DNA of 64,000 bases from an uncultured Chlorobiota bacterium (GCA_947311445.1 CAMZKV010000037.1:5494-69493), one strand, 5' to 3'; positions 26,269 to 56,756 are shown, counted from the stretch's first letter. The notes: a model not told the origin generated them from the sequence alone. Numbers and translations: made by a program.

Positions 26269-28773
26269 TTATTTTATTTCTTCTCCTTCTGGCTCTTTCC
26301 CATTTTCAGGATTTGTACCAATAAGTGAAGTTGTATATGCAGTAAGGTTTGCAATTTCACTTTCTGTAAATTTCTTAAATGGGGGCATTATTCCAGCACC
26401 ATTTAAAATTACATTTTTAATGTCATCGTTTGATGCTCCATGTAATGTAAAATTATCTCCTAAGTTTGATCCCATACCTCCTTCTCCTTTTTGTCCGTGG
26501 CAAGCTGCACAATCATTTGCAAAAATAGTTGCACCTGCTTCTAAGTTTATTTCTCCTGAGTTTGTTTGTTCAACTTTAGGTTCATTCGCTTTCTTTTCAG
26601 CAATTTTTGCTAAGGAAATATCTTTTCCAAGTTTGTGCATATATGCAATCATTGCAATTATTTCTTTATCCCATGTAACATCTTTGCCCATGTCTTGAAG
26701 CTCTTTTGCAATTCCTTCTGCTTGTGTTTTATATGCTTTTTCAACCTTGTTATAATCAACATCCCCATTTTTATTTACAAAATTATAATCTTTTTCAGCA
26801 CCATCATATGGAACACCAAGAGTTATCATAACTTCTATTTTTCTTTTTAAAGTGCTGTTATCAATAGTGTTATCAAAAAACCAAGGATATGCAGGCATAA
26901 TTGATTTTTCAAATGTTTTTTGTGGGTTTAAAAAATGTTCGTAGTGCCAAATAGCAGGTCTGAACATTGTTCCTCCTCTGTATCCTGCACGAGCTAAATC
27001 CGGACCTGTTCGTTTTGAACCCCATTGGTATGGATGGTCATATACAAATTCTCCTTGTTTTGAATATTCTCCGTAACGTTCTGTTTCAGAACGGAAAGGA
27101 CGAACAACTTGCGAGTGGCAAGTATAACATCCTTCTCTAACATAAATATCTCGTCCTTGTAATTCAAGAGGTGTGTATGGTTTTACTGCTTCAATTGTAG
27201 GAATATTTGATTTTACAGTTATCATAGGAATAATCTCAACTAAACCTCCAATAATAATTGCTATTAAAATCCAAACTGTAAAATGTACTGCTTTTCTTTC
27301 TACCCATCTGTGAGGAGTTTCTCCCGCTAACCTTGCTTTAGCAACTTTTTCTCTTGGAGCAGCATGAGCTTCTTCGTTATTAATAATATGACCTGATTTT
27401 ACTGTTTTAACAATATTGAATATCATCATAACAGCTCCGCCAAAATAAAACAGACCACCTAAAGTACGAGTAACATACATTGGCATAATTTGAGTTACTG
27501 TATCTAAGAAATCAGGATATGCTAAGAAACCTGTATCTGTAAACTCTTTCCACATTAAAGTTTGTGTAAATGCTGCCCAGTATAATGGTACTGAATATAA
27601 TAACATACCAAATGTTCCAATCCAGAAGTGCATGTTTGCAGATTTTTCTGAATGTAGTTTTGTATTAAATAGTCTTGGAATTAACCAATATAACATACCA
27701 AAGGTTAAGAAACCGTTCCAGCCCATTCCTCCAATATGAACGTGAGCAATTGTCCAGTCTGTAAAATGACTTAATGCATTAACTGTTTTAAGTGATAACA
27801 TTGGACCTTCAAAAGTTGACATCCCATAAGCAGTAACACCAACAACAAAGAATTTAAGAATTGCACTGTCTCTTACTCTGTCCCATGCACCTCTCAATGT
27901 GAGAAGTCCGTTCATCATACCACCCCAAGATGGAGCAAGTAGCATGATTGAGAAAACAACTCCAAGAGTTTGTGCCCAATCCGGTAATGCTTGATATAAT
28001 AAATGGTGAGGTCCTGCCCACATGTATATAAAAATTAATGACCAAAAGTGAACAATAGAAAGTCTGTATGAATAAACAGGACGATTTGCAGCTTTTGGCA
28101 AGAAATAATACATTATGCCTAAGAATGGTGTTGTTAAGAAAAATGCAACAGCATTATGTCCATACCACCATTGAACAACAGCATCTTGTACACCTGCATA
28201 AACAGTGTAGCTTTTAAAGAAACTTACAGGTATTTCAATTGAGTTACCAATGTGCAGTACTGCAACTGCTACAAAACTTGCTAAGAAAAACCAAATAGCA
28301 ACATAAATGTGTTGTACTCTTCTTTTTATGAGAGTTCCAATCATATTCCATCCGAATGCAACCCAAACAACAGCAATTAAGATGTCAATAGGCCATTCTA
28401 GTTCAGCATATTCTTTACTAGTTGTGAAACCAGCTAAAAGTGTTATAGCAGCTAAAAGAATAATTGTTTGCCAACCCCAAAAGTTAAGTTTACTTAGAAA
28501 GTCGCTAAACATTCTTGCTTTTAAAAGACGTTGCATAGAATAATATGCACCTGTAAAAATGGCATTACCTGTAAATGCAAAAATAATTGCATTTGTGTGA
28601 ACAGGACGAACTCTACCAAAAGTGGTAAAGGACAAACCAAAGTTCAAAGATGGAAATGCAATCTGTGCTGCGGCTAACAAACCGACCAGCATACCTACAA
28701 TTCCCCAAAAAAGAGTTGCATAAGCAAATAGCTTCACAATCTTATTGTCATAGTAGAATTTTTCTTGTGTCAT
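26269..28773 (-). CDS. ccoN: cbb3-type oxidase fused CcoN-CcoO with an additional C-terminal cytochrome c domain
   Basis: FGRVRPVHTN, WWYGHNAV, WAGPHHL, WTIAHVH (CcoN); EGCYTCHSQ, WGSKRTGPDL (CcoO); extra CAACH domain at 26497-26511. Confidence 0.96.
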   Translation of the reverse strand: MTQEKFYYDNKIVKLFAYATLFWGIVGMLVGLLAAAQIAFPSLNFGLSFTTFGRVRPVHTNAIIFAFTGNAIFTGAYYSMQRLLKARMFSDFLSKLNFWGWQTIILLAAITLLAGFTTSKEYAELEWPIDILIAVVWVAFGWNMIGTLIKRRVQHIYVAIWFFLASFVAVAVLHIGNSIEIPVSFFKSYTVYAGVQDAVVQWWYGHNAVAFFLTTPFLGIMYYFLPKAANRPVYSYRLSIVHFWSLIFIYMWAGPHHLLYQALPDWAQTLGVVFSIMLLAPSWGGMMNGLLTLRGAWDRVRDSAILKFFVVGVTAYGMSTFEGPMLSLKTVNALSHFTDWTIAHVHIGGMGWNGFLTFGMLYWLIPRLFNTKLHSEKSANMHFWIGTFGMLLYSVPLYWAAFTQTLMWKEFTDTGFLAYPDFLDTVTQIMPMYVTRTLGGLFYFGGAVMMIFNIVKTVKSGHIINNEEAHAAPREKVAKARLAGETPHRWVERKAVHFTVWILIAIIIGGLVEIIPMITVKSNIPTIEAVKPYTPLELQGRDIYVREGCYTCHSQVVRPFRSETERYGEYSKQGEFVYDHPYQWGSKRTGPDLARAGYRGGTMFRPAIWHYEHFLNPQKTFEKSIMPAYPWFFDNTIDNSTLKRKIEVMITLGVPYDGAEKDYNFVNKNGDVDYNKVEKAYKTQAEGIAKELQDMGKDVTWDKEIIAMIAYMHKLGKDISLAKIAEKKANEPKVEQTNSGEINLEAGATIFANDCAACHGQKGEGGMGSNLGDNFTLHGASNDDIKNVILNGAGIMPPFKKFTESEIANLTAYTTSLIGTNPENGKEPEGEEIK

Positions 28774-28807: not shown

Positions 28808-28984
28808 TTAATTTTTGTTGTTATCTTTTTTCTGTTCATCAATTTCAATATCGTCAAATAAAATTCTCATAGCCGGAGTTTCATTATCATCAAACTGACC
28901 ATTTTTTACTGACCAAATATATAATGTTAAAAAAATTAATGCAACTATTAAGCTGAGACCTATAAGAATAAATATTACAATCAT
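28808..28984 (-). CDS. ccoS: cbb3-type oxidase assembly protein CcoS (58 aa, absent from the ORF track)
   Basis: Manual translation MIVIFILIGLSLIVALIFLTLYIWSVKNGQFDDNETPAMRILFDDIEIDEQKKDNNKN; W...GQFDD..PA.RIL.DD is the CcoS signature. Confidence 0.93.
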   Translation of the reverse strand: MIVIFILIGLSLIVALIFLTLYIWSVKNGQFDDNETPAMRILFDDIEIDEQKKDNNKN

Positions 28985-34135: not shown

Positions 34136-34525
34136 TTAGTCTTCAAAAGGAATCATTTCAATTTCTAATCCTGTGTCTAACATATAATCTTCAATGTCTT
34201 CTTCCATATCAATATCATCTTCGTCATAGTACCAATTTATTAATACTTCTCCTCCGTCTTCTTCATAATCTTTAATTATATTAAGTAAATCTAGGATGCT
34301 TCTAGAAGTACTTGTGTTAAAGTATGTTAGTTTTATTTCAAATGTTAAAGGATTTTTCACTTCTGTTGTAAATTCTTCAAGCCATTGAATAAGTGGATCG
34401 TAAAATTCAATTGTATCTTCGAGAAAAGATTCGCCTTCTAATAAGCAATATCCTGTTTCTGAATTAAAATCAACAGTTGGTATAAAAAAATTAGTGTGTG
34501 AACCTTCTATATGTATATTTTCCAT
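34136..34525 (-). CDS. SiaC family (DUF1987) regulatory phosphoprotein
   Basis: TP.VDF...G...GES..E....FY.P...WL, L.YFNTSTSR, INWYYDEDD.DM.E motifs. Confidence 0.88.
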   Translation of the reverse strand: MENIHIEGSHTNFFIPTVDFNSETGYCLLEGESFLEDTIEFYDPLIQWLEEFTTEVKNPLTFEIKLTYFNTSTSRSILDLLNIIKDYEEDGGEVLINWYYDEDDIDMEEDIEDYMLDTGLEIEMIPFED

Positions 34526-34538
34526 TATTTTATTTTTT

Positions 34539-35081
34539 TTATTTATCAACTTTTACTGAGATAGAAAAATAGGATGTTTTTTCATCAATTGGGTTTATTT
34601 CCAGGTCTAGAGGATTGCCGGATGTGAGAGCCACAGTTATTAAACCAATATTTGGACTATGGTTTTCGTCTTTGTTTTCTCGTCTGACGCTTCTTTTGTA
34701 TTCTCTCAATTCTGAATGGTCAAGTTCGTTAATGTTTTTGCTATTTTCCAAAACAGGAATTAGATGTTCATTTTTTATGGGATTTCCTGTAACTAAAATA
34801 AAATTTTTAACAGTTTCTTTAAGGATTATTGTTCCTGCTCCAACTTCTTTACCGTTTTTAAGTTTTATTTTCTCCGAAGAATATTTTGAAATATTTTCAG
34901 CAAGTTCAAAAAATATCTTAAATAATTTTTTTGTTGCTTTTTCTGAAAGAGTGTTTACAACTCCTATATAATCACCAAGATATGTAATTATCTTTCCGTC
35001 AACAGGACCTTTGTATGATATCCTAATTTCTTCTGAAAATAGGCTTTGTCCTAAACTTAGTTTTTTGTTAATTGTTGCCAT
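34539..35081 (-). CDS. SiaB family (DUF6272) protein kinase, paralog 2
   Basis: SYKGP, F.IFFELAENI.KYS, TGNPI, L...Y, NIGLI.VAL.SGNPL; its ATG directly follows the stop of paralog 1. Confidence 0.82.
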   Translation of the reverse strand: MATINKKLSLGQSLFSEEIRISYKGPVDGKIITYLGDYIGVVNTLSEKATKKLFKIFFELAENISKYSSEKIKLKNGKEVGAGTIILKETVKNFILVTGNPIKNEHLIPVLENSKNINELDHSELREYKRSVRRENKDENHSPNIGLITVALTSGNPLDLEINPIDEKTSYFSISVKVDK

Positions 35082-35082
35082 C

Positions 35083-35622
35083 TTATGCTTCTTTATTAAT
35101 TTTAACTGCAATAATATAGAATGATTTTTCTTTTTCAATTTCAATAAAAGAAACATTCAAAGGATTTCTAGAAAGCAGTGCTGCCTGAACCAGTCCAATG
35201 TTTCCCGTTCCTCTTTCTCCTTGCGGAAGTTTTCTGAGCTCTCTTTTGAATGTTCTTAACCCGTCTCTGTCATACGAATTTATTTTGTCGCATTTATCTT
35301 TTAGGATTATTTCATGTTTTTTGTCTATTGGGTTTCCTAAAATAAAATTATAATGATCATCATTATTTTGAATAATGAAAGTTCCAACACCGGAACTTTC
35401 TCCTTTTTTAGTTTGTTCTTGTTCGTTGGAATAGTATGAAACATTTTGTGCAAGTTCAATAAATACTTTAAATATTGTTTTGTTTAATTTCTTATCTGCA
35501 GATATAGAATGTTCAATGTTTTTTCCAAACATTGATAATACCTGACCATCAAACGGACCGGTGTATGACATAACAATATTTTTTCCGGTTAATCGTGTAA
35601 AAACACTTTTAGTAGCACTCAT
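35083..35622 (-). CDS. SiaB family (DUF6272) protein kinase, paralog 1
   Basis: SYTGPF, FKVFIELAQNV.YYS, GN.I, IN......LR, GNIGLV.AALLSRNPL. Confidence 0.82.
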   Translation of the reverse strand: MSATKSVFTRLTGKNIVMSYTGPFDGQVLSMFGKNIEHSISADKKLNKTIFKVFIELAQNVSYYSNEQEQTKKGESSGVGTFIIQNNDDHYNFILGNPIDKKHEIILKDKCDKINSYDRDGLRTFKRELRKLPQGERGTGNIGLVQAALLSRNPLNVSFIEIEKEKSFYIIAVKINKEA

Positions 35623-35973: not shown

Positions 35974-36807
35974 TTATTTTTCAACTTTACCAGTTTTTAC
36001 CCATTCGTTTAATGCTCCATCGTAAACTTTTACATTAGGATATCCAAGAATTGATTTTAATACTAAAAATATAACTCCTGCTCTAACACTTGTTTTGCAA
36101 TAAAGAATTATTTTTTTATTTGAAGTTATTCCTGCGGATTTAAATGCACTTGCTAATTCTGTTTTTGATTTAAATTCCCCTTTCGAGTTTAAAACTTTTT
36201 TAAAATGAAAATTAACTGCTCCGGGAATATGACCCCCTAAACTTTTTTCAGTTTCTCCTTTAAATTCATCAGCCGGACGAACATCTACAAGTAGATAATT
36301 TCCGGATTTTACGTCTTTTAATTTTGCAATATAAGCAAATTTAACACTAGGTGTAAATGTTGTTTTTGATAAAGTTGTAGGAGATGATGAAAATGGTTTT
36401 CTTGCAGCAAACCATGCTTTGTAACCTCCGTTAAGCATTTTTACATTTTTAACACCTAAATATTTAAGTACCCAATACATTCTTCCAGCGTATTTGCCTG
36501 AACCATTATCATACACAACAATTGGTTTTGTGTTGCTTACACCTTTACTTCCAAGTATTGTAGCAATAGCAGAAGATGCTTTTAATTTGCCTTCGGAAGA
36601 CGAATTTAATTCTTTATAATGAATATTAATTGCACCTTTAATATGTGCTTTTGCATATTTCTTTGCTTTTCCTGCATAAATTACAATACATTCTTTCTTT
36701 TTAATCTTTGCTGCCAAATCTTTTGCTGATATAAAATCTTGTGCTTTAATATTCATACTTGAAAGAACAAATATAAATACCATAATTATTGAACTTAATT
36801 TTTTCAT
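35974..36807 (-). CDS. Exported tandem-domain sulfurtransferase (rhodanese, SseA/TST-like)
   Basis: Signal peptide ending in IKA-Q; HIKGA, VVYD.G...AGR.YW.L...G...V..LNGG..AW, DVR...EF.G...GHIPGA, active loop YCKTSVRA, YDGA..EW. Confidence 0.92.
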   Translation of the reverse strand: MKKLSSIIMVFIFVLSSMNIKAQDFISAKDLAAKIKKKECIVIYAGKAKKYAKAHIKGAINIHYKELNSSSEGKLKASSAIATILGSKGVSNTKPIVVYDNGSGKYAGRMYWVLKYLGVKNVKMLNGGYKAWFAARKPFSSSPTTLSKTTFTPSVKFAYIAKLKDVKSGNYLLVDVRPADEFKGETEKSLGGHIPGAVNFHFKKVLNSKGEFKSKTELASAFKSAGITSNKKIILYCKTSVRAGVIFLVLKSILGYPNVKVYDGALNEWVKTGKVEK

Positions 36808-36825
36808 TTTTTTTTTTTAGTATTT

Positions 36826-37920
36826 TTAGAATTTAATTTGAACTTGCATTAAAAACGCATCGTTAGCTACTTCCACATAATTATCTCCAACTCCTAATTC
36901 GCTGTTCATTAAGTAATTAAGTTGAAGCCTTGTATTGTCGTTGAAGAAATAGTTTACTCCTATTGTTATTGTTGATAATTTATCAATTACAGTATTCTCG
37001 ATTTTGTTTTCTGTATCAGGATCAAAAAATTCATATTTAACAATAGGCTGTAAATTAAAATTTGTCATATACATTGCTTGTACAAATGCTCCACCTCTTT
37101 TTTCTCCCATCAAAACAGGATCAGCACCACAACCTCCTCCAGAAGCACCAATGCCTCCTTGGTCTGCAATGTATTCTGCTTGAACTGTAAAATCTTTATA
37201 TTTGAATTCAAGTTCCCCTGCATAGCTTGTTCTATTAATAGTATCTTTGTCTGGAAAACCATATCTAAAACTTCCTCCAACTCTCAAAAAATCTAGAGGT
37301 TTTAATGTAACACGACCAATAACATCTTTTTTTCTATTATTATCGCCGTGTGTATTTGTAAGAGAGCCTATTCCGTTTCCGTTCATAAGAGCAATTGCAT
37401 ATTTTATAAGAGTTTTATTGTCGCCTCCAAGTAACATAATTCCCATATCCCTTTGTGGCGAAACTATTTGGTCTGAAACATTTGCTCTGTTTATTGTATG
37501 CAATCCGTTGCAAGGTGTATTTATTTCCATTCCAAAAGGTTGCTTAAAAGAACCCATGGAAACTTTAGCCCATTTGTACCTTGTATATGAAACAAAGGCA
37601 TCTAACAAATATGGGTATCCTCCGCCAACAAAAGCACTATTTTCGAGAACTACATAATATTTAAAATCATAAGGAATATTACCTTTTACTCCGAGCCTAG
37701 CTCTTTTAAATTTAAAAGTATTTGTATTTTCATTTAAATCAGGAGTATTTTTATCATCATTAAAATGAAATTCATATTGAGGTTGTATAAATCCAAATAA
37801 TTTTGGCTTTCCGCTGTCATCTGTTCCTTCATCTCCATCATCATCGCAACCTTGAGCAAATGCGACTGAATAAATTAAAATAAAAAATAATGACATTAAA
37901 ATAACTGTTAGTTTTTTCAT
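36826..37920 (-). CDS. Phosphate-selective porin O/P-like outer membrane beta-barrel
   Basis: Signal peptide (start MKKLTV), FGFIQPQY, FKFKRARLG..G, LLDAF, G.FKQPFG.E, terminal QVQIKF aromatic residue. Confidence 0.82.
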   Translation of the reverse strand: MKKLTVILMSLFFILIYSVAFAQGCDDDGDEGTDDSGKPKLFGFIQPQYEFHFNDDKNTPDLNENTNTFKFKRARLGVKGNIPYDFKYYVVLENSAFVGGGYPYLLDAFVSYTRYKWAKVSMGSFKQPFGMEINTPCNGLHTINRANVSDQIVSPQRDMGIMLLGGDNKTLIKYAIALMNGNGIGSLTNTHGDNNRKKDVIGRVTLKPLDFLRVGGSFRYGFPDKDTINRTSYAGELEFKYKDFTVQAEYIADQGGIGASGGGCGADPVLMGEKRGGAFVQAMYMTNFNLQPIVKYEFFDPDTENKIENTVIDKLSTITIGVNYFFNDNTRLQLNYLMNSELGVGDNYVEVANDAFLMQVQIKF

Positions 37921-37941
37921 TTTTTTTTTATGAAGTTTAAC

Positions 37942-37972
37942 AAAAAAAGCCTTGAAGATATACAAGGCTTTT
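37942..37972 (-). terminator. Internal terminator-like hairpin between the rhodanese lipoprotein and porin genes
   Basis: aaaagccttg / caaggctttt stem flanked by A/T runs on both sides. Confidence 0.7.
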
Positions 37973-37987
37973 ATTTCTAAAATTTTT

Positions 37988-39004
37988 TTATTTTGTAACT
38001 AAAGGATAATCTTTTGGATTTGCTGTAACTCCCCATTGGTTAGGTCCTGTCCAGAAACTACTTGAATTAAATAAACCATTCAATCCAAATTTTAAACTGT
38101 ATGCATTGTAACCAAGAACTCTTAAATAAGCAGTTAATACACCAGAAGTTTGTCCTGTATAGCAATAAGTTATAACATCTTTGCTTGCATCTAAATTTTT
38201 ATATTCTTTATTTTCCAAAGTTAAAGGATTGATTCTATATGCACCTTTTATATGTCCGTAGCCTGCATAATCTGTACCTGAGAAGTAATTATTTATACAA
38301 TAATTATCAGGAGTGTCAATAATATCACTTGCAGATTTACCCTTAAATCCAGCTTTAAGAACTTTGTTAATTCTGTCGTCAAGTAGGGCTTTTCCTGTTA
38401 ATGAAGAACTTATTTCAGGATCACTAAATGTAACGGGTGCAGTTGCATCTGTTGTCCAATTATTATGCCCGTCAGCTACATCTCCAATATTTGGAGTCCA
38501 TTTATCAAGTGTTGAATTCCAACCGCTCATTCCCCATTTTAATGCTTGTGTATTTCTGTATCCCGCTAATCTTAATAATGCAGTTGTAAAGCATGCAACC
38601 TGACCTGTGTAACAAACAACAAGAATTGGTTTATCTCCTGCATTTGCAGCTTCTGTTAAAGCTCCTGTTAAATCTCCATCATCAGTAGGAGCTGTATTAA
38701 TTGCTCCGTCAACATGACCTGCTGCATAATCAGCAGCACTTCTAATATCAATAATATGATATTTTGCTAAGAAAGCATCAACTTCATCTGATGTTGCGGG
38801 TGCCGGTACAACAAATTTAATATCAGTTTCGCCATGATATTTAATAATACTAGGTAAATCTAAATTGTTACTTTTCATATAATCCGTAAGAACTTTAAAA
38901 GCTGGATCTGCGTTTGGTTCAATAGGTTTAGTATCTTTACAGCTTGTAAATAATACTGTCGGCACTAAAAATAATGCAATAAAATAAATTGTTAATTTTT
39001 TCAT
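37988..39004 (-). CDS. Lipoprotein with two rhodanese domains
   Basis: Lipobox LFTSC; IIDIRS..DY..GHVDGA and GHIKGA; both domains keep CYTGQ active loops; LKWGM.GW and LKFGLNG. Confidence 0.88.
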   Translation of the reverse strand: MKKLTIYFIALFLVPTVLFTSCKDTKPIEPNADPAFKVLTDYMKSNNLDLPSIIKYHGETDIKFVVPAPATSDEVDAFLAKYHIIDIRSAADYAAGHVDGAINTAPTDDGDLTGALTEAANAGDKPILVVCYTGQVACFTTALLRLAGYRNTQALKWGMSGWNSTLDKWTPNIGDVADGHNNWTTDATAPVTFSDPEISSSLTGKALLDDRINKVLKAGFKGKSASDIIDTPDNYCINNYFSGTDYAGYGHIKGAYRINPLTLENKEYKNLDASKDVITYCYTGQTSGVLTAYLRVLGYNAYSLKFGLNGLFNSSSFWTGPNQWGVTANPKDYPLVTK

Positions 39005-39071
39005 TTTTTTTAATTTTTAAAATATGTATCTTAATTTGTTTAAAATTTTATTATTTATTATTTGAGCTATT

Positions 39072-39650
39072 TTAACATCCACCGTCATCTTCTTCTGCTC
39101 CTTCTGGCTCGAAACCCTCAGCTTGTACAGGAATTTCTATATTGTCTGGATATGCTTTTTTAATTGCATTATATCCTCCTACCAGACTTTTTACATTTGT
39201 ATAACCCATTGTCATAAGTGTTAATGTGGCTAAAGCACTCCTTTTACCACTTTTGCAATTAAGAATTATTAATTCATCTTTTTTTGGTGTGTAAATCATT
39301 GCATCTTCCCAAAAACTGTCTTTTTGAATTCTAAATTCAAGAACTCCTCTGGGGATATTAAGTGCATTTTTAATATGCCCTTTGTTAAAATCTTTTTCTG
39401 CTCTTAAATCTATCAGAACAAATGTTTCTTCTCCGTCAACTTTTGCCTTAAATTCATCAGGTGTAATTTCAGAAATTTTTGTTTTTGCGTCTGCAATCAT
39501 GTCATCAACAGTATTAAATTCGGCTGTTGCTTTGGGCATTACGTCGGTCTTTGTATCATTTTTTCCTTCATTTTGACTTTCTTTTGTTTCGTTGCAACTA
39601 ACTGCAAATAAGAAAATTAATAATACTAATACTAAATTTACTTTTTTCAT
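39072..39650 (-). CDS. Single-domain rhodanese lipoprotein with acidic GGC C-terminus
   Basis: Lipobox FAVSC; IDLR...F..GHI..A.NIPRG.LEF, NCKSGKRS active loop, L.GG; ends EEDDGGC. Confidence 0.88.
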   Translation of the reverse strand: MKKVNLVLVLLIFLFAVSCNETKESQNEGKNDTKTDVMPKATAEFNTVDDMIADAKTKISEITPDEFKAKVDGEETFVLIDLRAEKDFNKGHIKNALNIPRGVLEFRIQKDSFWEDAMIYTPKKDELIILNCKSGKRSALATLTLMTMGYTNVKSLVGGYNAIKKAYPDNIEIPVQAEGFEPEGAEEDDGGC

Positions 39651-39794
39651 AACTTTTTTACTTTTTTTAATTAACAAATTGAATAAAAATTTTTCGTTTT
39701 TTGATAGTGCAAATATCCAGACTTTTCACAAGGCAGCAAAGGAATTAGACGTGAAACAAAATATAAAAAAAACTATAAAATTTCATAACAAAAA

Positions 39795-39808
39795 TTGATG
39801 TATATCAT
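39795..39808. promoter_or_regulatory. FNR-like box in the divergent rhodanese / crp-fnr promoter region
   Basis: TTGAT-gtat-ATCAT, one mismatch from TTGAT-N4-ATCAA; TATATTTG -7 element at 39828-39835. Confidence 0.55.
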
Positions 39809-39856
39809 GTTTTTTATTGAAATGTGTTATATTTGTAATATTTATGAATTTAATAT

Positions 39857-40552
39857 ATGGAAAAGAATAATGTCCAATCTAGTTGTACAGTAGCAGATTA
39901 CAAGTGTAAGTGCTTTGATGTATTAAAACCTTCTGAAATTGAACTTATAAAAAATAATGAAGTTTATGTAACTTATAAACGTGGGGAAACTATTTGTAAG
40001 CAAGGAACTTTTGCTTCGCATATTGTTATTATGGAAGAAGGTTTAGCAAAAGTTTCTATTGAGGATTGTAATAAATCTTTAATATTAAAAATTATTCCCG
40101 AAGGAAATATGATTGGTTTAACTGCACTCTCACAGACTAATAATACATTTCAATATTCTGCAAGTGCCTATGTTGATTCAAAAGCAAGACTCATAGATAT
40201 TAAAATCTTTAAGAAAATTGTTAAGCAAAATTCTGACTTTTCATTTGAATTGTTAAATCTACTTGCATCCAATAGTGTACAGATATATGGTCGTTTCTTT
40301 TGTCTAACAAATAAGCAATCATACGGTAAGTTAGCAGATATTATTTTGTGTCTTTCTAATAGGGTATATAAAAAACGAGAGTTTGAGCTATTATTAAGCA
40401 GAAAAGATTTGGCTGAATTGTCTGATATGTCAACGGAGAACGTTATTCGAATGTTAAAAAAGTTTAAAGAAGATGGTTTAATTGAGATGAAAGGAAAACA
40501 ATTTAAAATTATAGATTATAAAAATTTAGTAAAAATAAGTGAAATTGGATAA
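39857..40552 (+). CDS. Crp/Fnr family transcriptional regulator
   Basis: cNMP-like barrel (YKRGETICKQG, G.AKV, G..IG), C-terminal HTH (LSRKDLAEL..MSTENVIR.L..F...G.I); N-terminal Cys cluster. Confidence 0.93.
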   Translation: MEKNNVQSSCTVADYKCKCFDVLKPSEIELIKNNEVYVTYKRGETICKQGTFASHIVIMEEGLAKVSIEDCNKSLILKIIPEGNMIGLTALSQTNNTFQYSASAYVDSKARLIDIKIFKKIVKQNSDFSFELLNLLASNSVQIYGRFFCLTNKQSYGKLADIILCLSNRVYKKREFELLLSRKDLAELSDMSTENVIRMLKKFKEDGLIEMKGKQFKIIDYKNLVKISEIG

Positions 40553-40728: not shown

Positions 40729-40930
40729 GGCTAGCTTTTGCGTTTGTTTTTAATTTATAATGATAGTAGCATAGTTATTTTAAATAATTTGCAGATAAAT
40801 ATGCAATAAATTGATAATAAACATTGTTTTATATCATATATTTTAAATATTTATTGTATATTTGATTATTATTTTAAATAGAGTAACTAAGCTATTTAAT
40901 TTATAGACACAAATTTAAAAAATATTGGCT

Positions 40931-42448
40931 ATGAAAACAACTATAAATAGTCTTTATGAAAAAAAAGACGATTGCATAAAATTAATTATTGAAAATTCAG
41001 AAGATATTATTTCAATTCATGATTTTGAAGGAACATATTTATTTTTTTTGGGAAGGCATAAATTTAATTATTTATCTGATGAAATAATTGGAAAAAAACC
41101 TTCTGATTTTTATGAACAAGATATTGCAGATAGAATTGTAAATAATATAAAAGATGCATATATAACTGGTGAAAAGAATATATTTGAAACTAAACTTTTA
41201 TTAAATAATGAATTTATTTGTTTTCAAATTAAAACTTTTCCTATAAAAGAAAACAATAAAATTGTTTCAGTTATGAAAATTTGTAAAGATATAACTGAAA
41301 AGGTAAAGAATAAACAAGATATATTAAAACAAAAAGAATTTCTGAATAATATTTTAAATTCAATAACTCATCCATTATACGTAATAGATGTTGAGACATA
41401 TAATATTGTTCTTGCAAACAAAGCAACTAATTTTAATGGATTTTCTGAGTTTAAAACTTGCTACTCATTATCTCATAATTTTAATAAGCCATGTAACGAA
41501 GCGGGTTATTCATGTCCAGTAGAAATTATAAAAAAAACAAAAGAATCTTGCATTACTGAACATATTCATTTTGATAAGAATAAAGAAAAAAAGGTTTTTG
41601 AAGTTCATGGGTTTCCTGTTTTTGATGAAAATAATAAGCTAATTCAAGTTATAGAATATAATATTGATATATCTGAAAAGAAAAAGCTAGAAGAATTATT
41701 ACTTATTGAAAAGGAAAAGGCAAATGAAAGTAATAGGTTAAAAACTGCTTTTCTTACAAATATGTCGCATGAAATTAGAACACCAATGAATGCAATTCTT
41801 GGCTTTGGAGAATTAATGAAAAATGAAAAACTTGAAGTTGAAAAAAGAAATAAATTTATTGGCATTATTAATAATTCAGGAAATTATCTTTTAGAATTAA
41901 TTGATGATATTATCGATATTTCTAAAATTGATGCAAAACAATTAGAAATTGTTGAATCAGAGGTTAACATTATTTCATTAGTTAATTAAATTTATATGTC
42001 TTTTATTTCTGAGCTTCATAATAATAAAAATAAATCGCTTATTGTAAATTGTGAAATTAAGAAGGGAGATGATTTAATACTAATTGACAGACAACGTTTA
42101 AGGCAGATTTTGACAAATTTGATTAGTAATGCTATTAAATTTACTGAAAAAGGTATAATTGAAATTAAATACTCGATTATACAGGAAAAAGAAATTTTGT
42201 TTGAAATTAAAGACAATGGAATTGGTATATCAAAAAAAGATATTCAATATATATTTGAAAGATTTAGGCAAGCCAATAATAAAACTAAAAAAGTTTATGG
42301 AGGCACAGGTTTAGGTTTAGCAATTTCAAAAGGTTTTGTTGAGTTAATGGGAGGTAAAATATCGGTAGAGTCAATAGAAGGGAAAGGTTCAATTTTTAGT
42401 TTTACTATTCCATATAATCAGGTCAAATTAGTTAATAATAAGTACTAA
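40931..42448 (+). pseudogene. PAS-PAS histidine kinase interrupted by one in-frame TAA (split into 40931-41989 and 41996-42448)
   Basis: gtt aat TAA att tat ATG: both ORFs are in frame; upstream part has two PAS-like domains and MSHEIRTPMN, downstream part has QIL.NL..NA.KF, DNGIGI, FERF, GGTGLGL. Confidence 0.85.
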
Positions 42449-52691: not shown

Positions 52692-54050
52692 ATGATACAA
52701 TTCATTTTAAACAACAAATTAATAAAAACCGAAAAAAAAGCAAGTTCAATTTTGCTAGATTTTATAAGATACGACCAACACCTTAAAGGAACAAAATCCG
52801 GTTGCAGAGAAGGTGATTGCGGTGCATGTACAGTTCTTGTAGGAACTCTTGAAAACGGTATTGTAAATTATAAAAGTATGGCATCTTGCCTTACGCCGCT
52901 TGGGAATGTGGCAGGAAAACATGTTGTAACTGTTGAAGGAATTAACGGAAAAGATTTAACCCCTATTCAGAAAGCATTACATGAACATTCAGGAACTCAA
53001 TGTGGTTTTTGCACACCGGGTTTTGTAGTTTCTTTAACAGCACACGCAATGTCAAAAAAAGAAAATACAAATGAAGCTGCAAAGCTCTCAATTTCAGGAA
53101 ATATTTGCAGATGTACAGGCTACAAATCAATTGAAAAATCCGTTGATGATATCGTTGATGATTTGAAAGAAAAACCAAAAACGGCATCCTTAAATTGGAT
53201 GATTGAACATAATTATTTACCAAAATATTTTAAGGACATTTCAAAACGACTATCTGAAATAAAAACTGAGAAACAAAAAGGTAAAAAAATAATAGGAGGA
53301 GGAACAGATTTATATGTGCAAAATCCAGATGAAACCTCTGACACAGAAGCAAGTTTTTATTTAAATAAAAATGAATATAAAGAAATATCAGAAAACAATG
53401 AAATTATAACAGTAGGAGCATCAGTTACAGCTAATGAAATTATGTATTCGAAAATTTTTAATAAACATTTTCCAAAAATAAAAGATTGGTTTAAACTAAT
53501 ATCATCTGAACAAATAAGAAATGTAGGAACTGTTGCAGGAAACTTTGTAAATGCCTCACCAATAGGAGATTTAACTATTTTTTTCTTAGCACTAAATGCA
53601 GAATTGAATTTAAAAAATTCCAAAGGAAAAGTAAGAAAAATTGCTTTAAAAAACTTCTATAAAGGATACAAAACAATAGATTTACAAAAAGATGAGATTA
53701 TTGAAAGTTTAAATTTCAATATACCTAAAAGCAATTTTAAATTTAACTTTGAAAAAGTGTCAAAAAGAACATTCTTAGATATTGCAACTGTAAATACTGC
53801 TCTTTCATATACATTAGCAAAAAATGTAATTGAAGATATTCATATTTCGGGTGGTGGTTTGGCTGCAATTCCAAAATATTTTGATAAAACACGAAATTTT
53901 TTGAAAGGAAAAGAACTAAATATGTCAAATCTGAATGATGCAAGCGAAATCCTAATTTCAGAAGTAAGTCCCATAAGTGATATAAGAGGAAGTAAAGAAT
54001 ATAAGAGTTTGTTGCTGAAACAATTGTTCTTTGCTCATTTTGAAATCTGA
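52692..54050 (+). CDS. xdhA: Xanthine dehydrogenase small subunit (2x[2Fe-2S] plus FAD)
   Basis: GTKSGCREGDCGACTV, QCGFCTPG, GNICRCTGY, GGGTDL, QIRNVGTVAGN..NASPIGD, FEKVSKR..LDIA. Confidence 0.92.
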   Translation: MIQFILNNKLIKTEKKASSILLDFIRYDQHLKGTKSGCREGDCGACTVLVGTLENGIVNYKSMASCLTPLGNVAGKHVVTVEGINGKDLTPIQKALHEHSGTQCGFCTPGFVVSLTAHAMSKKENTNEAAKLSISGNICRCTGYKSIEKSVDDIVDDLKEKPKTASLNWMIEHNYLPKYFKDISKRLSEIKTEKQKGKKIIGGGTDLYVQNPDETSDTEASFYLNKNEYKEISENNEIITVGASVTANEIMYSKIFNKHFPKIKDWFKLISSEQIRNVGTVAGNFVNASPIGDLTIFFLALNAELNLKNSKGKVRKIALKNFYKGYKTIDLQKDEIIESLNFNIPKSNFKFNFEKVSKRTFLDIATVNTALSYTLAKNVIEDIHISGGGLAAIPKYFDKTRNFLKGKELNMSNLNDASEILISEVSPISDIRGSKEYKSLLLKQLFFAHFEI

Positions 54051-54203
54051 AACTAAGATTTTTTAAAGGAATACTTTTTAAATTATTCATTATTTTTTTT
54101 TAGTTCTTAAAATTTAAGTGCAAAAAACTAATTCTAATTAGATGTCTTAAACACATCCAGATAATCAAATAATTAGTATTAAAATCTAACAAAGCAACAT
54201 AAA

Positions 54204-56756
54204 ATGATAAGATTCAAACTAAATAACCAACAAATAACGTACAAAGGAAACAAAGATAAAACATTACTCGATTTCATAAGAAAAGATAAAGGATTAACCT
54301 CTGTGAAAGATGGTTGCTCCGGACAATCTGCCTGCGGTGCATGTACTGTTGAAGTAAATGGTAAAGCTGTATTATCCTGCGTAACAAAACTAGGCAAATT
54401 ACAAGATGCTGAAGTTTTTACTCCGGAAGGATTTCCTGAATATGTGAAAGATACCATAGCAAAAGCCCTTGTAAACGAAGGTGGTGTGCAATGCGGTTTT
54501 TGCACTCCCGGATTTTTAAGTAGAACAAAAGTTCTTTTACAAGATAATTCGCAACCTTCAGTTGCCGAAATAAGAAAAGCAATAAAATCACACATTTGCA
54601 GATGTACCGGATATAAAAAAATTGAAAAAGGAATTTTAACAGCCGCAAATGCAATAAAAGAAAATAAAACATTAGAAATCAGAAAAACTTCCGGCAAAAT
54701 AGGACAATCGCAACCAAAATACGGAGCATATGAAACTGCAATAGGAGAAAGGAAATTTGTAGATGATATGAACTTTGAAGGAATGTTGCATGGAGCATTA
54801 AAATTTAGCAATTTTCCCAAAGCAAAAGTTTTGAAAATAGATACTAAAAAAGCTGAACAAATTACTGGAGTACATAAAATTGTAACTGCGAAAGATATTC
54901 CTGGCAAAAAAATAATAGGTCTAATTTATCAGGATTGGTCGGTTATGATTGATGAAGGAAAAACTACACATTACATTGGTGATGTAATTGCTGGAGTAAT
55001 TGCAGATACCGATAAAATTGCTCGACAAGCAGTTGATTTAATAGAAATTAAATACGAAATTTTAAAACCCGAAACTGATGTTTTTGATGCCATAAACGGA
55101 GAAAGAGTTCACCCCGAAAAGCCTAATAACTTTAATACAACACAATTTACTATTGGAGATGCTGATAAAGCAATTAAGAATTCAAAATACACTTCAAAAG
55201 GAACCTACCAAACCCAAAGAATAGAACACGGTTTTCTTGAAAAAGAAGCGGCAATTGCACTACCATACAAAAATGGAGGTATTCATCTCTACAGCCAATC
55301 ACAAGGAGTTTATGAAGATCAAAGACAAGTTGCAGACATTCTAGGATTACCAATTGAAAAAGTAAGAGTTACACTCATTCCAAATGGAGGAGGTTTTGGT
55401 GGAAAGGAAGATATAAGCATACAAGGACACACGTCACTTTTTGCTTTTTTAATACAAAAACCTGTAAAAATATCTTTAACTAGAGAAGAATCAATTAGAT
55501 TACACCCAAAAAGACATCCTGTTTTTATGGATATTGAACTTGGAGCAGATGAAAACGGAAAACTAACAGGAATAAAATTGAGAGCAGTAGGAGATACAGG
55601 TGCCTACGCATCAGTTGGCACAAAAGTGCTTGAAAGAGTTGCTGGACACGCAACAGGTGGGTATTTTGTTCCAAATGTTGATGTGGAAGCAAAAACAGTT
55701 TACACAAATAACATTCCATGTGGAGCAATGCGTGGTTTTGGTGCAAACCAAGTTGCTTTTGCTCTTGAATCTTGTATTGACGATATTTGTGAGAAAGCAA
55801 AATTTGACCGTTGGCAATTTCGTTGGGACAACGCTTTAACTGATGGACTCAGAACATCAACAGGGCAAAAAGTAACCGGTGTAGGTATTCGAAAATCATT
55901 GGAAGCAATAAAAGAAGATTTTTATAATGCTAAATATGCAGGTTTAGCAACAGCAATTAAAAACTCTGGTGTAGGAAACGGTATGATTGACGAATCTAAA
56001 GTTACAATTGATATAGTATCAGAAAATTACGTTATTCTACAGCACGGTTGGACAGAAATGGGACAAGGAGTGCATAATATGGCTTTGCAAACCCTTTGCC
56101 AAGAAACAGGTATTTCTCCTGATATAATTAAAGTTATTGTTGATACAGATGCAAATATTAAAACAGGAATGACAACTTCGTCAAGGGGAACAGCATTAGT
56201 TGGACTTGCAACTATAAATGCATCAAAGACTTTGGTTGAAGATTTGAAAACTAAAACTTTAAAAGAACTATCTGGCAAACAATACAGAGGACAATTTGTA
56301 TGCGATTGGACAACTAAGCCAGGCGATGACGTTGAAGAGCCTATAATTCATTATTCTTACGGTTATGCTGCACAATTATGCATATTAAATGATGAAGGTA
56401 AAGTTGAAAAAATTGTTGCTGCTCACGATGCAGGAAAAATTATGAACCAAATGCTTTTTGAAGGACAAATTGAAGGCGGAGTTCACATGGGATTAGGCTA
56501 TGCCTTAACAGAAGACTTACCAATGAAAGACGGCTTTCTCGTTCACGATAAATACAGAAAACTTGGAATATTAAAAGCTCATGAAACTCCTGAAATAATA
56601 GTAAAAGGCGTTGAAGTTAAAGACCCCATAGGACCGTACGGAGCAAAGGGTATTGGTGAAATTGGTTTAGTGCCAACCGCAGGTGCTGTTGCTAATGCCT
56701 TGTATCAATTTGATAAAATTAGACGGTTTAAATTACCTTTGTTTCCAAGAAAATGA
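54204..56756 (+). CDS. xdh: Selenium-dependent-type xanthine dehydrogenase / molybdenum hydroxylase (fused [2Fe-2S] and Mo domains)
   Basis: SVKDGCS.Q.ACGACT, QCGFCTPG, ICRCTGY; GGGFGGKED, HPKRHP, MRGFG.NQ, KNSGVGNG..D, TT.SR.T, YGAKG.GE; about 850 aa architecture. Confidence 0.85.
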   Translation: MIRFKLNNQQITYKGNKDKTLLDFIRKDKGLTSVKDGCSGQSACGACTVEVNGKAVLSCVTKLGKLQDAEVFTPEGFPEYVKDTIAKALVNEGGVQCGFCTPGFLSRTKVLLQDNSQPSVAEIRKAIKSHICRCTGYKKIEKGILTAANAIKENKTLEIRKTSGKIGQSQPKYGAYETAIGERKFVDDMNFEGMLHGALKFSNFPKAKVLKIDTKKAEQITGVHKIVTAKDIPGKKIIGLIYQDWSVMIDEGKTTHYIGDVIAGVIADTDKIARQAVDLIEIKYEILKPETDVFDAINGERVHPEKPNNFNTTQFTIGDADKAIKNSKYTSKGTYQTQRIEHGFLEKEAAIALPYKNGGIHLYSQSQGVYEDQRQVADILGLPIEKVRVTLIPNGGGFGGKEDISIQGHTSLFAFLIQKPVKISLTREESIRLHPKRHPVFMDIELGADENGKLTGIKLRAVGDTGAYASVGTKVLERVAGHATGGYFVPNVDVEAKTVYTNNIPCGAMRGFGANQVAFALESCIDDICEKAKFDRWQFRWDNALTDGLRTSTGQKVTGVGIRKSLEAIKEDFYNAKYAGLATAIKNSGVGNGMIDESKVTIDIVSENYVILQHGWTEMGQGVHNMALQTLCQETGISPDIIKVIVDTDANIKTGMTTSSRGTALVGLATINASKTLVEDLKTKTLKELSGKQYRGQFVCDWTTKPGDDVEEPIIHYSYGYAAQLCILNDEGKVEKIVAAHDAGKIMNQMLFEGQIEGGVHMGLGYALTEDLPMKDGFLVHDKYRKLGILKAHETPEIIVKGVEVKDPIGPYGAKGIGEIGLVPTAGAVANALYQFDKIRRFKLPLFPRK

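Follow-up and report, generated by a model that had tools for sequence, protein, structure and literature searches.

Why would a bacterium place an outer-membrane porin among three exported rhodaneses? The question is raised by a 64,000-nucleotide stretch of DNA from an uncultured Chlorobiota bacterium (GCA_947311445.1, CAMZKV010000037.1:5494-69493), referred to here as the window. Positions 35,974 to 40,552 of the window hold a module of four minus-strand genes arranged head to tail, rhdA, rhdB, a porin of the Porin_O_P family and rhdC, and a gene for a Crp/Fnr-family regulator, called crp here, diverges from them. All four products of the module have an export signal. The reading favored here, which is on balance a probable one, is that the module is an outer-envelope front end for sulfur compounds that captures polysulfide- or thiosulfate-type species and delivers them to a polysulfide reductase or a sulfur importer encoded elsewhere. 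The source sample of the genome is an epibiont metagenome, and this counts in favor of the same reading. All sequencing runs in which the sequence occurs are DNA runs, and none is RNA-seq. An initial annotation of the window had described four co-oriented exported genes, a terminator, a divergent Crp/Fnr gene and an FNR-like box; all of these are present in the sequence, with two start codons amended. The features are listed below in window coordinates.

39857-40552, plus strand: crp, Crp/Fnr-family regulator, 231 amino acids, divergent from the module
39795-39808, no strand assigned: FNR/CRP-type palindrome TTGATgtatATCAT, between crp and rhdA
39072-39650 (from ATG), minus strand: rhdA, single-rhodanese lipoprotein with a CKSGKR loop and the C-terminus EEDDGGC-COOH
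37988-39004, minus strand: rhdB, lipoprotein of 338 amino acids with two rhodanese domains, CYTGQ in each
37945-37972, minus strand: hairpin and T-run in the rhdB-porin spacer
36826-37920 (from ATG), minus strand: porin, Porin_O_P family, 16-strand outer-membrane protein of 364 amino acids
35974-36807, minus strand: rhdC, soluble periplasmic tandem rhodanese of 277 amino acids
35918-35943, minus strand: intrinsic terminator at the operon end

Conservation and gene neighborhoods

Loci for comparison came from a porin scan with one genome per species (18 loci), from 60 relatives (10 loci) and from metagenomes (four loci with the same porin subfamily). A double rhodanese of the rhdB type is found directly upstream of the porin in 32/32 informative loci. 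The claim that these genes are clustered, which was open to refutation by scatter in other genomes, is upheld by this adjacency. In 19 loci the porin gene is directly followed by rhdC, and a rhdA-type gene is usually found upstream. The carriers are Bacteroidales-type metagenome-assembled genomes, Flavobacteriales (Lutibacter and Gelidibacter) and Krumholzibacteriota. Distribution of the module is patchy, as it is present in 11 of 61 relatives.

The neighbors of the module in other genomes indicate what its partners may be. In 12 Lutibacter-type Flavobacteriales loci, including that of the cultured L. maritimus DSM 24450, rhdB and the porin end one same-strand string, psrA-psrB-psrC-yeeE1-yeeE2-rhd1-rhd2-rhd3-rhdB-porin, as far as each contig extends. 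Two Cys-tailed pseudo-rhodaneses and a double rhodanese precede rhdB in this string. The first eight genes of the same string are found in the window's own genome on a different contig, C39 (locus L009, 3-7509). The initial annotation missed this psrABC cluster with its split yeeE, and it also missed the cysteine arms and the published porin-plus-rhodanese idea that are discussed below.

The PsrA protein encoded on C39 has a twin-arginine translocation (Tat) motif, RRDFIK, and matches the polysulfide reductase of Thermus thermophilus (PDB 2VPW) at 2e-186; against the PhsA family NF012032 it scores 499 bits, where the cut-off is 694. The matches of PsrB are to iron-sulfur proteins of the TtrB/NrfC type and those of PsrC to the NrfD family, and all three subunits of a PsrABC/PhsABC enzyme (Mo-bisPGD subunit, 4Fe-4S subunit and membrane anchor) are thus encoded. 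The pair of half-size YeeE proteins matches the sulfur-transport family. The cluster also encodes three rhodanese or rhodanese-like proteins, all of which end in KEEEGGC. Two of them are membrane-anchored and have no catalytic Cys, and the third is a double-rhodanese lipoprotein that is a paralog of rhdB. In the relative G004, whose PsrA is 98% identical to that of the window's genome, there is a psr cluster and no detectable porin module; this gap is due either to variation between close strains or to a module missed by the 94%-complete assembly.

Other loci have different partners. At L013 the module follows a cytochrome of the octaheme tetrathionate-reductase family (TIGR04315, 583 bits against a cut-off of 375) and a cytochrome b, and L061 has the same gene order, as judged by Pfam family. 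At L055, L056, L027 and L058 the module lies amid genes for YeeE, DsrE-like, MvhD and HdrA/Qmo-like proteins, with TusA called in L058, and at L059 just ArsR-TusA-YeeE is found upstream. All of these companions of the module are sulfur-cycle genes. Co-occurrence was assessed among the 61 relatives with a one-sided Fisher test, uncorrected for phylogeny. The YeeE family is present in 11/11 module-bearing relatives vs 25/50 of the others (p = 0.0014), and yeeE is adjacent to the module in several loci, both of which agree with the YeeE/YedE link that had been proposed for this locus.

An octaheme tetrathionate-reductase-family gene is found near psrA in G005:C21, G049:C22 and G046:C65, where the two form a small sulfur-respiration island. 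They are separated by 0.4-1.2 kb and are divergent in G005 and G049, while the spacing in G046 is about 2 kb. The gap in G049 holds a perfect TTGATATATATCAA box.

The rhodaneses and their cysteine tails

The three rhodaneses differ in how they are exported and in how many domains they have. rhdA has the lipobox AVSC and matches the Rhodanese family PF00581 at 1.9e-18. rhdB has the lipobox FTSC and matches PF00581 in two stretches at 1.4e-27. rhdC carries a signal-peptidase-I signal (IKA/QDF) and also matches in two stretches (3.9e-37), with an N-terminal domain that has no catalytic Cys and a C-terminal domain that has CKTSVR. Each protein therefore combines a PF00581 match with a Cys in an active-site loop (CKSGKR in rhdA, CYTGQ twice in rhdB and CKTSVR in rhdC), the features of a competent rhodanese. 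Both catalytic Cys residues of rhdB are present in 27/27 homologs, and that of rhdC in 13/13. Among NCBIfam models rhdC matches 3-mercaptopyruvate sulfurtransferase (NF008557) with 123.6 bits, below the cut-off of 250, and the tandem of an inactive and an active domain is present.

A second Cys, at the end of a flexible tail, is conserved better than the catalytic one in rhdA. Among the rhdA homologs at the module loci the tail Cys is present in 10/11, in the form of GGC, GGCGG or GCGG, vs 7/11 for the catalytic Cys, and GGC is invariant in the rhdA-type alignment of 14 sequences. In the AlphaFold2 model of rhdA the predicted local distance difference test (pLDDT) score exceeds 90 in the rhodanese core but is 40-69 over roughly 22 residues at the C-terminus, which points to a floppy tail. 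Twelve further lipoprotein homologs from a large protein collection were inspected; in eleven of them GGC comes after an acidic run at the C-terminus, and the twelfth has GGCG as its last residues. Cytoplasmic relatives have no tail. In the psr clusters, rhd1 and rhd2, which are anchored in the membrane, retain only this second feature: the catalytic Cys is present in 0/24 and an EGGC C-terminus in 24/24. rhdA-type proteins share with SoxY a flexible C-terminal arm that carries a GGC(GG) Cys. They do not share the SoxY fold or its SoxZ partner, as the sole Pfam domain of rhdA is Rhodanese and sox genes were seen in no locus. No paper on rhodaneses with GGC or GGCGG tails was found in the literature searched.

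The porin

The porin matches PF07396 at 6.7e-18, with 65.5 bits against a gathering cut-off of 20.9 bits. Its AlphaFold2 model is a 16-strand barrel with a mean pLDDT of 67, and a Foldseek search with this model returned OmpC, OmpF, OprP and OprO at E values of about 1e-11 to 1e-12. Three Cys residues are invariant in 29/29 homologs. C25 belongs to an arm at the N-terminus (QGC, then acidic residues), and loops 3 and 6 hold C137 (NTPC) and C264 (GGGCG), respectively. After the signal peptidase I (SPI) site the mature protein begins with Q-G-C, followed by an acidic Gly/Ser-rich stretch that is disordered in the model (residues 10-35 are below a pLDDT of 50). From the topology of the modeled barrel this arm has to be located in the periplasm. 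The loops that hold C137 and C264 both have low model confidence.

A profile search of 1.84 billion representative proteins returned 199 clusters at E <=1e-30, and the three-Cys pattern is limited to the best-scoring 45 or so of these. In more distant Porin_O_P proteins the loop-3 site is mostly Ser and the arm is absent. About ten Arg or Lys residues are invariant in the porin alignment, and so many conserved basic residues suggest an anion-selective porin.

Two other interpretations of the porin sequence were considered and ruled out. The Cys of the QGC motif could be taken for that of a lipobox, which would make the porin a lipoprotein; however, homologs have AQC, SQC or AQLC at this point, and because Q or L stands at the -1 position in some of them the signal is assigned to the SPI type with no lipobox. 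An in-frame TGA in the porin homolog of G005 is not a selenocysteine codon, as it lies 5' of the ATG.

What do the three Cys residues do? It is possible that the porin is a thiol-active conduit, in which the Cys residues pass sulfane sulfur covalently by thiol-polysulfide exchange from the surface to the pore and on to the GGC arms of the rhodaneses. This idea is an unlikely one. If it is true, protein-bound sulfur would travel in a bucket brigade from the outer membrane to the reductase or the YeeE channel, a mechanism of outer-membrane transport that has no described precedent.

The regulator and its box

The regulator matches PF00027 at 2.2e-11 and PF13545 at 4.5e-13, and it has the two domains of a Crp/Fnr protein. 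It scores 39 bits against the NCBIfam Fnr model, which has a cut-off of 228. Cys residues at positions 10, 19, 47 and about 164 (in an ILCLS motif) are common to most or all of seven aligned orthologs, with a spacing unlike that of E. coli FNR. Homologs of crp lie beside the module in 8 other loci, seven of them at 48-61% identity (L012, L013, L053, L054, L057, L061 and L062) and one, in L056, at 31%. Past the porin, the 12 Flavobacteriales loci whose contig extends there have a Crp-family gene different from crp. At L050 (G008:C4), which has the closest porin homolog, there is no crp and no rhdA. A small upstream gene on the same strand at 12077-12481 of L050 has an N-terminus that looks MerR-like, which suggests that regulators have been swapped.

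The TTGATgtatATCAT box (TTGAT-N4-ATCAT) is located 48 nucleotides upstream of the crp ATG and 144 nucleotides upstream of the rhdA ATG. As a stand-alone signal the box was rejected, as 13 sites with <=1 mismatch are found in the AT-rich window where 11.5 are expected. It gains significance only when orthologous intergenic regions are compared: a box with <=1 mismatch lies beside crp in 5/6 regions from the close orthologs (48-61% identity), the window included and L054 being the exception, whereas the expectation is about 0.04 per 200 nucleotides. Conservation beside crp is thus far beyond chance. The distant L056 has just a two-mismatch site, far from crp. The -7 consensus of Bacteroidota is TAnnTTTG. 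With the start of crp expected from the TATATTTG -7 element at 39828-39835, the center of the box is about 41 nucleotides upstream, a geometry that would fit activation of crp's own promoter. A (T/G)TGAT-N4-ATCA(A/T) box also lies 9-35 nucleotides before the start of psrA in 7/10 relatives, with a three-mismatch copy in G004, and the similarity of the two boxes suggests one regulon.

Elsewhere in the window an FNR-like box, TTCATTATCATCAA, occupies 28880-28893, about 107-120 nucleotides upstream of ccoNO (26269-28773, minus strand), which encodes a fused cbb3 oxidase. Through this box the high-affinity oxidase could belong to the Crp/Fnr regulon of the module or to a related one.

A probable sulfur front end and its alternatives

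From gene content, export signals, synteny, invariant Cys residues, predicted fold and disorder, and co-occurrence we infer which substrate is used, which way sulfur flows, what the Cys residues do, what the regulator senses and how each transfer step proceeds, as follows. The porin, rich in invariant Arg and Lys, would admit anionic sulfane-sulfur compounds (polysulfide, thiosulfate or tetrathionate) through the outer membrane. The lipoproteins rhdB, with its two active sites, and rhdA are probably docked near the periplasmic mouth of the barrel, where they would take the sulfur as persulfides, and rhdC would shuttle it across the periplasm. The sulfur may then be passed to PsrA or to a YeeE channel by arms that end in Cys, among them those on the membrane-anchored pseudo-rhodaneses that the psr cluster encodes. 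In the window's genome the likely acceptor is the PsrABC cluster on contig C39, with its split YeeE channel and its three rhodanese or rhodanese-like proteins that end in EEGGC. The dedicated Crp/Fnr-type regulator would control the module via the conserved TTGAT-N4-ATCA(A/T) box. The outer-membrane-to-periplasm relay put forward in the initial annotation is retained here as the best reading for sulfane-sulfur or chalcogen anions; the supply of selenium to Xdh that was attached to it is not.

Several observations weigh against a sulfur front end of this kind. psrA is found in 7/11 module-bearing relatives vs 19/50 of the others (p = 0.11), and strict co-occurrence of the module with psrA is not borne out. 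On these counts the Psr link is frequent and sometimes physical but not obligatory. Both psrA and the octaheme cytochrome are missing from G008 and G014, the genomes with the two closest homologs of the porin. PsrA, PhsA and SrrA share a lineage in which sequence does not reveal the substrate (PMC7331816, PMC13047784); given the presence of SrrA in this lineage, selenite would stay on the list of candidate substrates. Lutibacter profundi was not stimulated by thiosulfate (PMC5219744). With regard to the porin, C137 and C264 could form a structural disulfide.

Some of the same observations would fit a module that feeds the cytoplasm, that is, one from which a YeeE-type importer receives thiosulfate or sulfane sulfur, to be assimilated or to enter cytoplasmic TusA/DsrE/Hdr-like metabolism, with the Psr link being secondary. 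YeeE is the sole partner found in every module-bearing relative. A full-length yeeE lies directly upstream of rhdA in L055, L056, L057, L027, L058 and L059, where the module also has TusA, DsrE-like and Qmo/Hdr-like genes beside it, and G008 and G014 have the module but lack psrA and the octaheme cytochrome. This alternative is nevertheless unlikely, as the Lutibacter module is physically continuous with psrABC, the module follows a periplasmic octaheme reductase in L013 and L061, and the only yeeE in the window's genome is the split copy inside the psr cluster. A further possibility is that the porin is an ordinary Pho-regulated phosphate or pyrophosphate porin that lies among unrelated periplasmic rhodaneses, as its Pfam name (Porin_O_P) and the OprP and OprO matches in the Foldseek search might suggest. 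That explanation is scarcely credible: rhodaneses flank the porin at all 32 informative loci from three orders or phyla, the three invariant Cys residues set the subfamily apart from generic Porin_O_P proteins, the regulator is of the Crp/Fnr type and not PhoB, and phosphate evokes no response from ExtI, the closest relative that has been studied (PMC5877670).

Selenium has to be considered in two forms. The initial annotation had proposed that the module could feed labile selenium to an Xdh encoded 15 kb away. No selD above the family cut-off was found in the window's genome (best score 65.6 bits vs 125) or anywhere among the 15 genomes of its genus (G000-G014, the window's genome and 14 others), and no xdh was found beside the module in related loci, in flanks of up to about 8 kb on each side. 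The proposal was rejected on both grounds, and it fails on the lack of selD throughout the genus. The genus-wide lack of selD also casts doubt on the xdh-like genes at 52692-56756 of the window as selenium-dependent enzymes.

The other form is uptake and reduction of selenite or tellurite in the manner of ExtH and ExtI, or a front end for an SrrABC-like selenite reductase with perselenide carriers. The analogy with ExtH and ExtI that had been drawn for this locus is apt: ExtI (NF040900) is the sole NCBIfam match of the porin and ExtH (NF040901) ranks second among the matches of rhdC, behind 3-mercaptopyruvate sulfurtransferase. In addition, Geobacter that has lost ExtI reduces less selenite and tellurite (PMC5877670), and a selenite reductase, SrrA, is among the members of the PsrA lineage (PMC7331816). 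For the full-length YeeE homolog of L056 the top-scoring model is that of YedE/FdhT, a selenium model, although the score is below cut-off, and selD is somewhat enriched among module-bearing relatives (6/11 vs 11/50, p = 0.04, uncorrected). The scores themselves are nonetheless far below cut-off, 60.5 bits vs 150 for ExtI and 75.6 vs 200 for ExtH, the latter over the rhodanese core only, and other members of the three-Cys porin subfamily reach 43-52 bits against ExtI. The module is therefore placed outside the ExtI and ExtH families. The Porin_O_P neighbors without the Cys residues were also considered as ExtI equivalogs, and none reached the cut-off. The missing selD counts against this form as well, and so do the neighbors, which are sulfur-cycle genes (octaheme tetrathionate-reductase family, TusA, DsrE, Qmo/Hdr-like), and the GGC arms, which are of the SoxY type. 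Moreover, the enzyme linked to the Geobacter ext genes is a polysulfide reductase that is needed for S0 respiration and reduces selenite in vitro (PMC13510729). A selenium or tellurium function for the module is quite improbable on this evidence.

Across genomes the same front end is combined with three back-ends, namely PsrABC, an octaheme reductase, and YeeE with cytoplasmic sulfur trafficking, which suggests a portable sulfur-acquisition cassette in anaerobic Bacteroidota and related phyla. Such a cassette would bear on how large a part these abundant heterotrophs play in the sulfur cycle of sediments, vents and host surfaces. In Geobacter the route of polysulfide across the outer membrane has been called unclear (PMC13510729). 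For the passage of polysulfide and S0-derived species across the outer membrane to periplasmic reductases, the module provides a conserved and genetically tractable candidate. At least one carrier, Lutibacter maritimus DSM 24450, is in culture, and the three porin Cys residues and the terminal Cys of the rhodanese tails can be mutated.

Gene layout and neighboring genes

The open reading frames of rhdA and the porin were called as 39072-39677 and 36826-37965. The TTG starts given by the ORF finder are probably wrong for both genes, and the true starts are probably the ATG at 39650, which gives a rhdA of 192 amino acids identical to the database gene call, and the ATG at 37920, which is favored for the porin. 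The spacer between the rhdB stop and the porin ATG is 67 nucleotides long and contains a terminator-like hairpin with 10 pairs, an 8-nucleotide loop and a T-run, which may be an internal attenuator or an RNA-stabilizing element. The terminator at 35943-35918 has an 11-bp stem with 5 G-C pairs, a 4-nucleotide loop and a T9 run.

Directly past this terminator, at 34136-35622, are two DUF6272 genes and a SiaC-family gene, which encode partner-switching components and are not kept beside the module in other genomes. On the other side, adjoining crp, a PAS-HisKA-HATPase histidine kinase occupies 40925-42448 in two open reading frames, with one in-frame TAA at 41987-41989 and an ATG 6 nucleotides downstream of it; this is either a pseudogene or a truly split kinase.

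Comparison with known systems

To our knowledge OprP and OprO have no rhodanese context, no conserved Cys and no Crp-type regulator. These two porins of Pseudomonas aeruginosa (PDB 2O4V, 4RJW) belong to the same Pfam family as the module porin and have the same 16-strand fold, but their identity to it in structural alignment is only about 16-17%. In OprP phosphate is bound by an arginine ladder and a lysine cluster.

Sud of Wolinella is the classical periplasmic polysulfide carrier. In Wolinella succinogenes it has been described as a periplasmic polysulfide-sulfur transferase (cited in PMC2885270). This rhodanese-type protein is thought to bind polysulfide sulfur on a Cys and to deliver it to PsrA, which is the role proposed here for rhdA, rhdB and rhdC. 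By its description, however, Sud is a single soluble protein and has no porin partner, lipid anchor or terminal-Cys tail. The tail is instead reminiscent of SoxY, the carrier protein of SoxYZ, in which a GGC at the tip of a flexible C-terminal swinging arm is the functional signature (PMC11237559). In each case an exported protein that takes part in sulfur metabolism carries a Gly-flanked Cys (GGC or GGCGG) at the very tip of a flexible C-terminus. In the module, however, the arm is on a rhodanese fold, the context is one of reduction or uptake and not of oxidation by Sox, and a mirror-image arm is found at the N-terminus of the porin.

The closest precedents in concept are from two other groups of bacteria. 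In Deferribacter desulfuricans a Porin_O_P protein (DEFDS_0667) and a rhodanese lipoprotein (DEFDS_0668) are encoded beside the psr/phs genes DEFDS_0670-72, and the authors proposed a polysulfide-specific porin with a periplasmic polysulfide binder (Takaki et al. 2010, PMC2885270). The combination of a porin, a rhodanese lipoprotein and a Psr/Phs molybdoenzyme is the same concept as that of the module. The Deferribacter locus differs, as described, in belonging to another phylum and in having one rhodanese where the module has three, and Cys arms are not mentioned for it. In Geobacter sulfurreducens the rhodanese lipoprotein ExtH and the Porin_O_P-like ExtI are likewise encoded next to a periplasmic polysulfide reductase, ExtKL (PMC5877670, PMC13510729). 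ExtKL, which is the same as MccSep, is essential for S0 respiration (PMC13510729). The partner of the module in the window's genome is PsrABC, and elsewhere an octaheme cytochrome or YeeE, whereas the Geobacter partner is a multihaem selenoprotein. The module also has three rhodaneses and a three-Cys porin, and it lacks the ext cytochromes and the bc complex. No cytochrome genes lie beside it in the window, and with an extHIJKLMNOPQS-type cluster it shares the rhodanese neighbor alone.

In view of these reports the initial annotation overstated its case when it called the locus the window's strongest candidate for an undescribed system, as the idea of a porin working with a rhodanese had been published (PMC2885270, PMC5877670). 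The general concept, a Porin_O_P protein and a rhodanese lipoprotein serving polysulfide respiration, is already known. No paper on a porin-rhodanese module in Bacteroidota was found in the literature searched. Four aspects of the module, for which this literature likewise gave no paper, appear to be new: the three-rhodanese architecture in Bacteroidota and their relatives, the porin subfamily whose three invariant Cys residues include one on a terminal arm, the presence of SoxY-like tails in proteins with a rhodanese fold, and the combination of a single front end with back-ends of three kinds.

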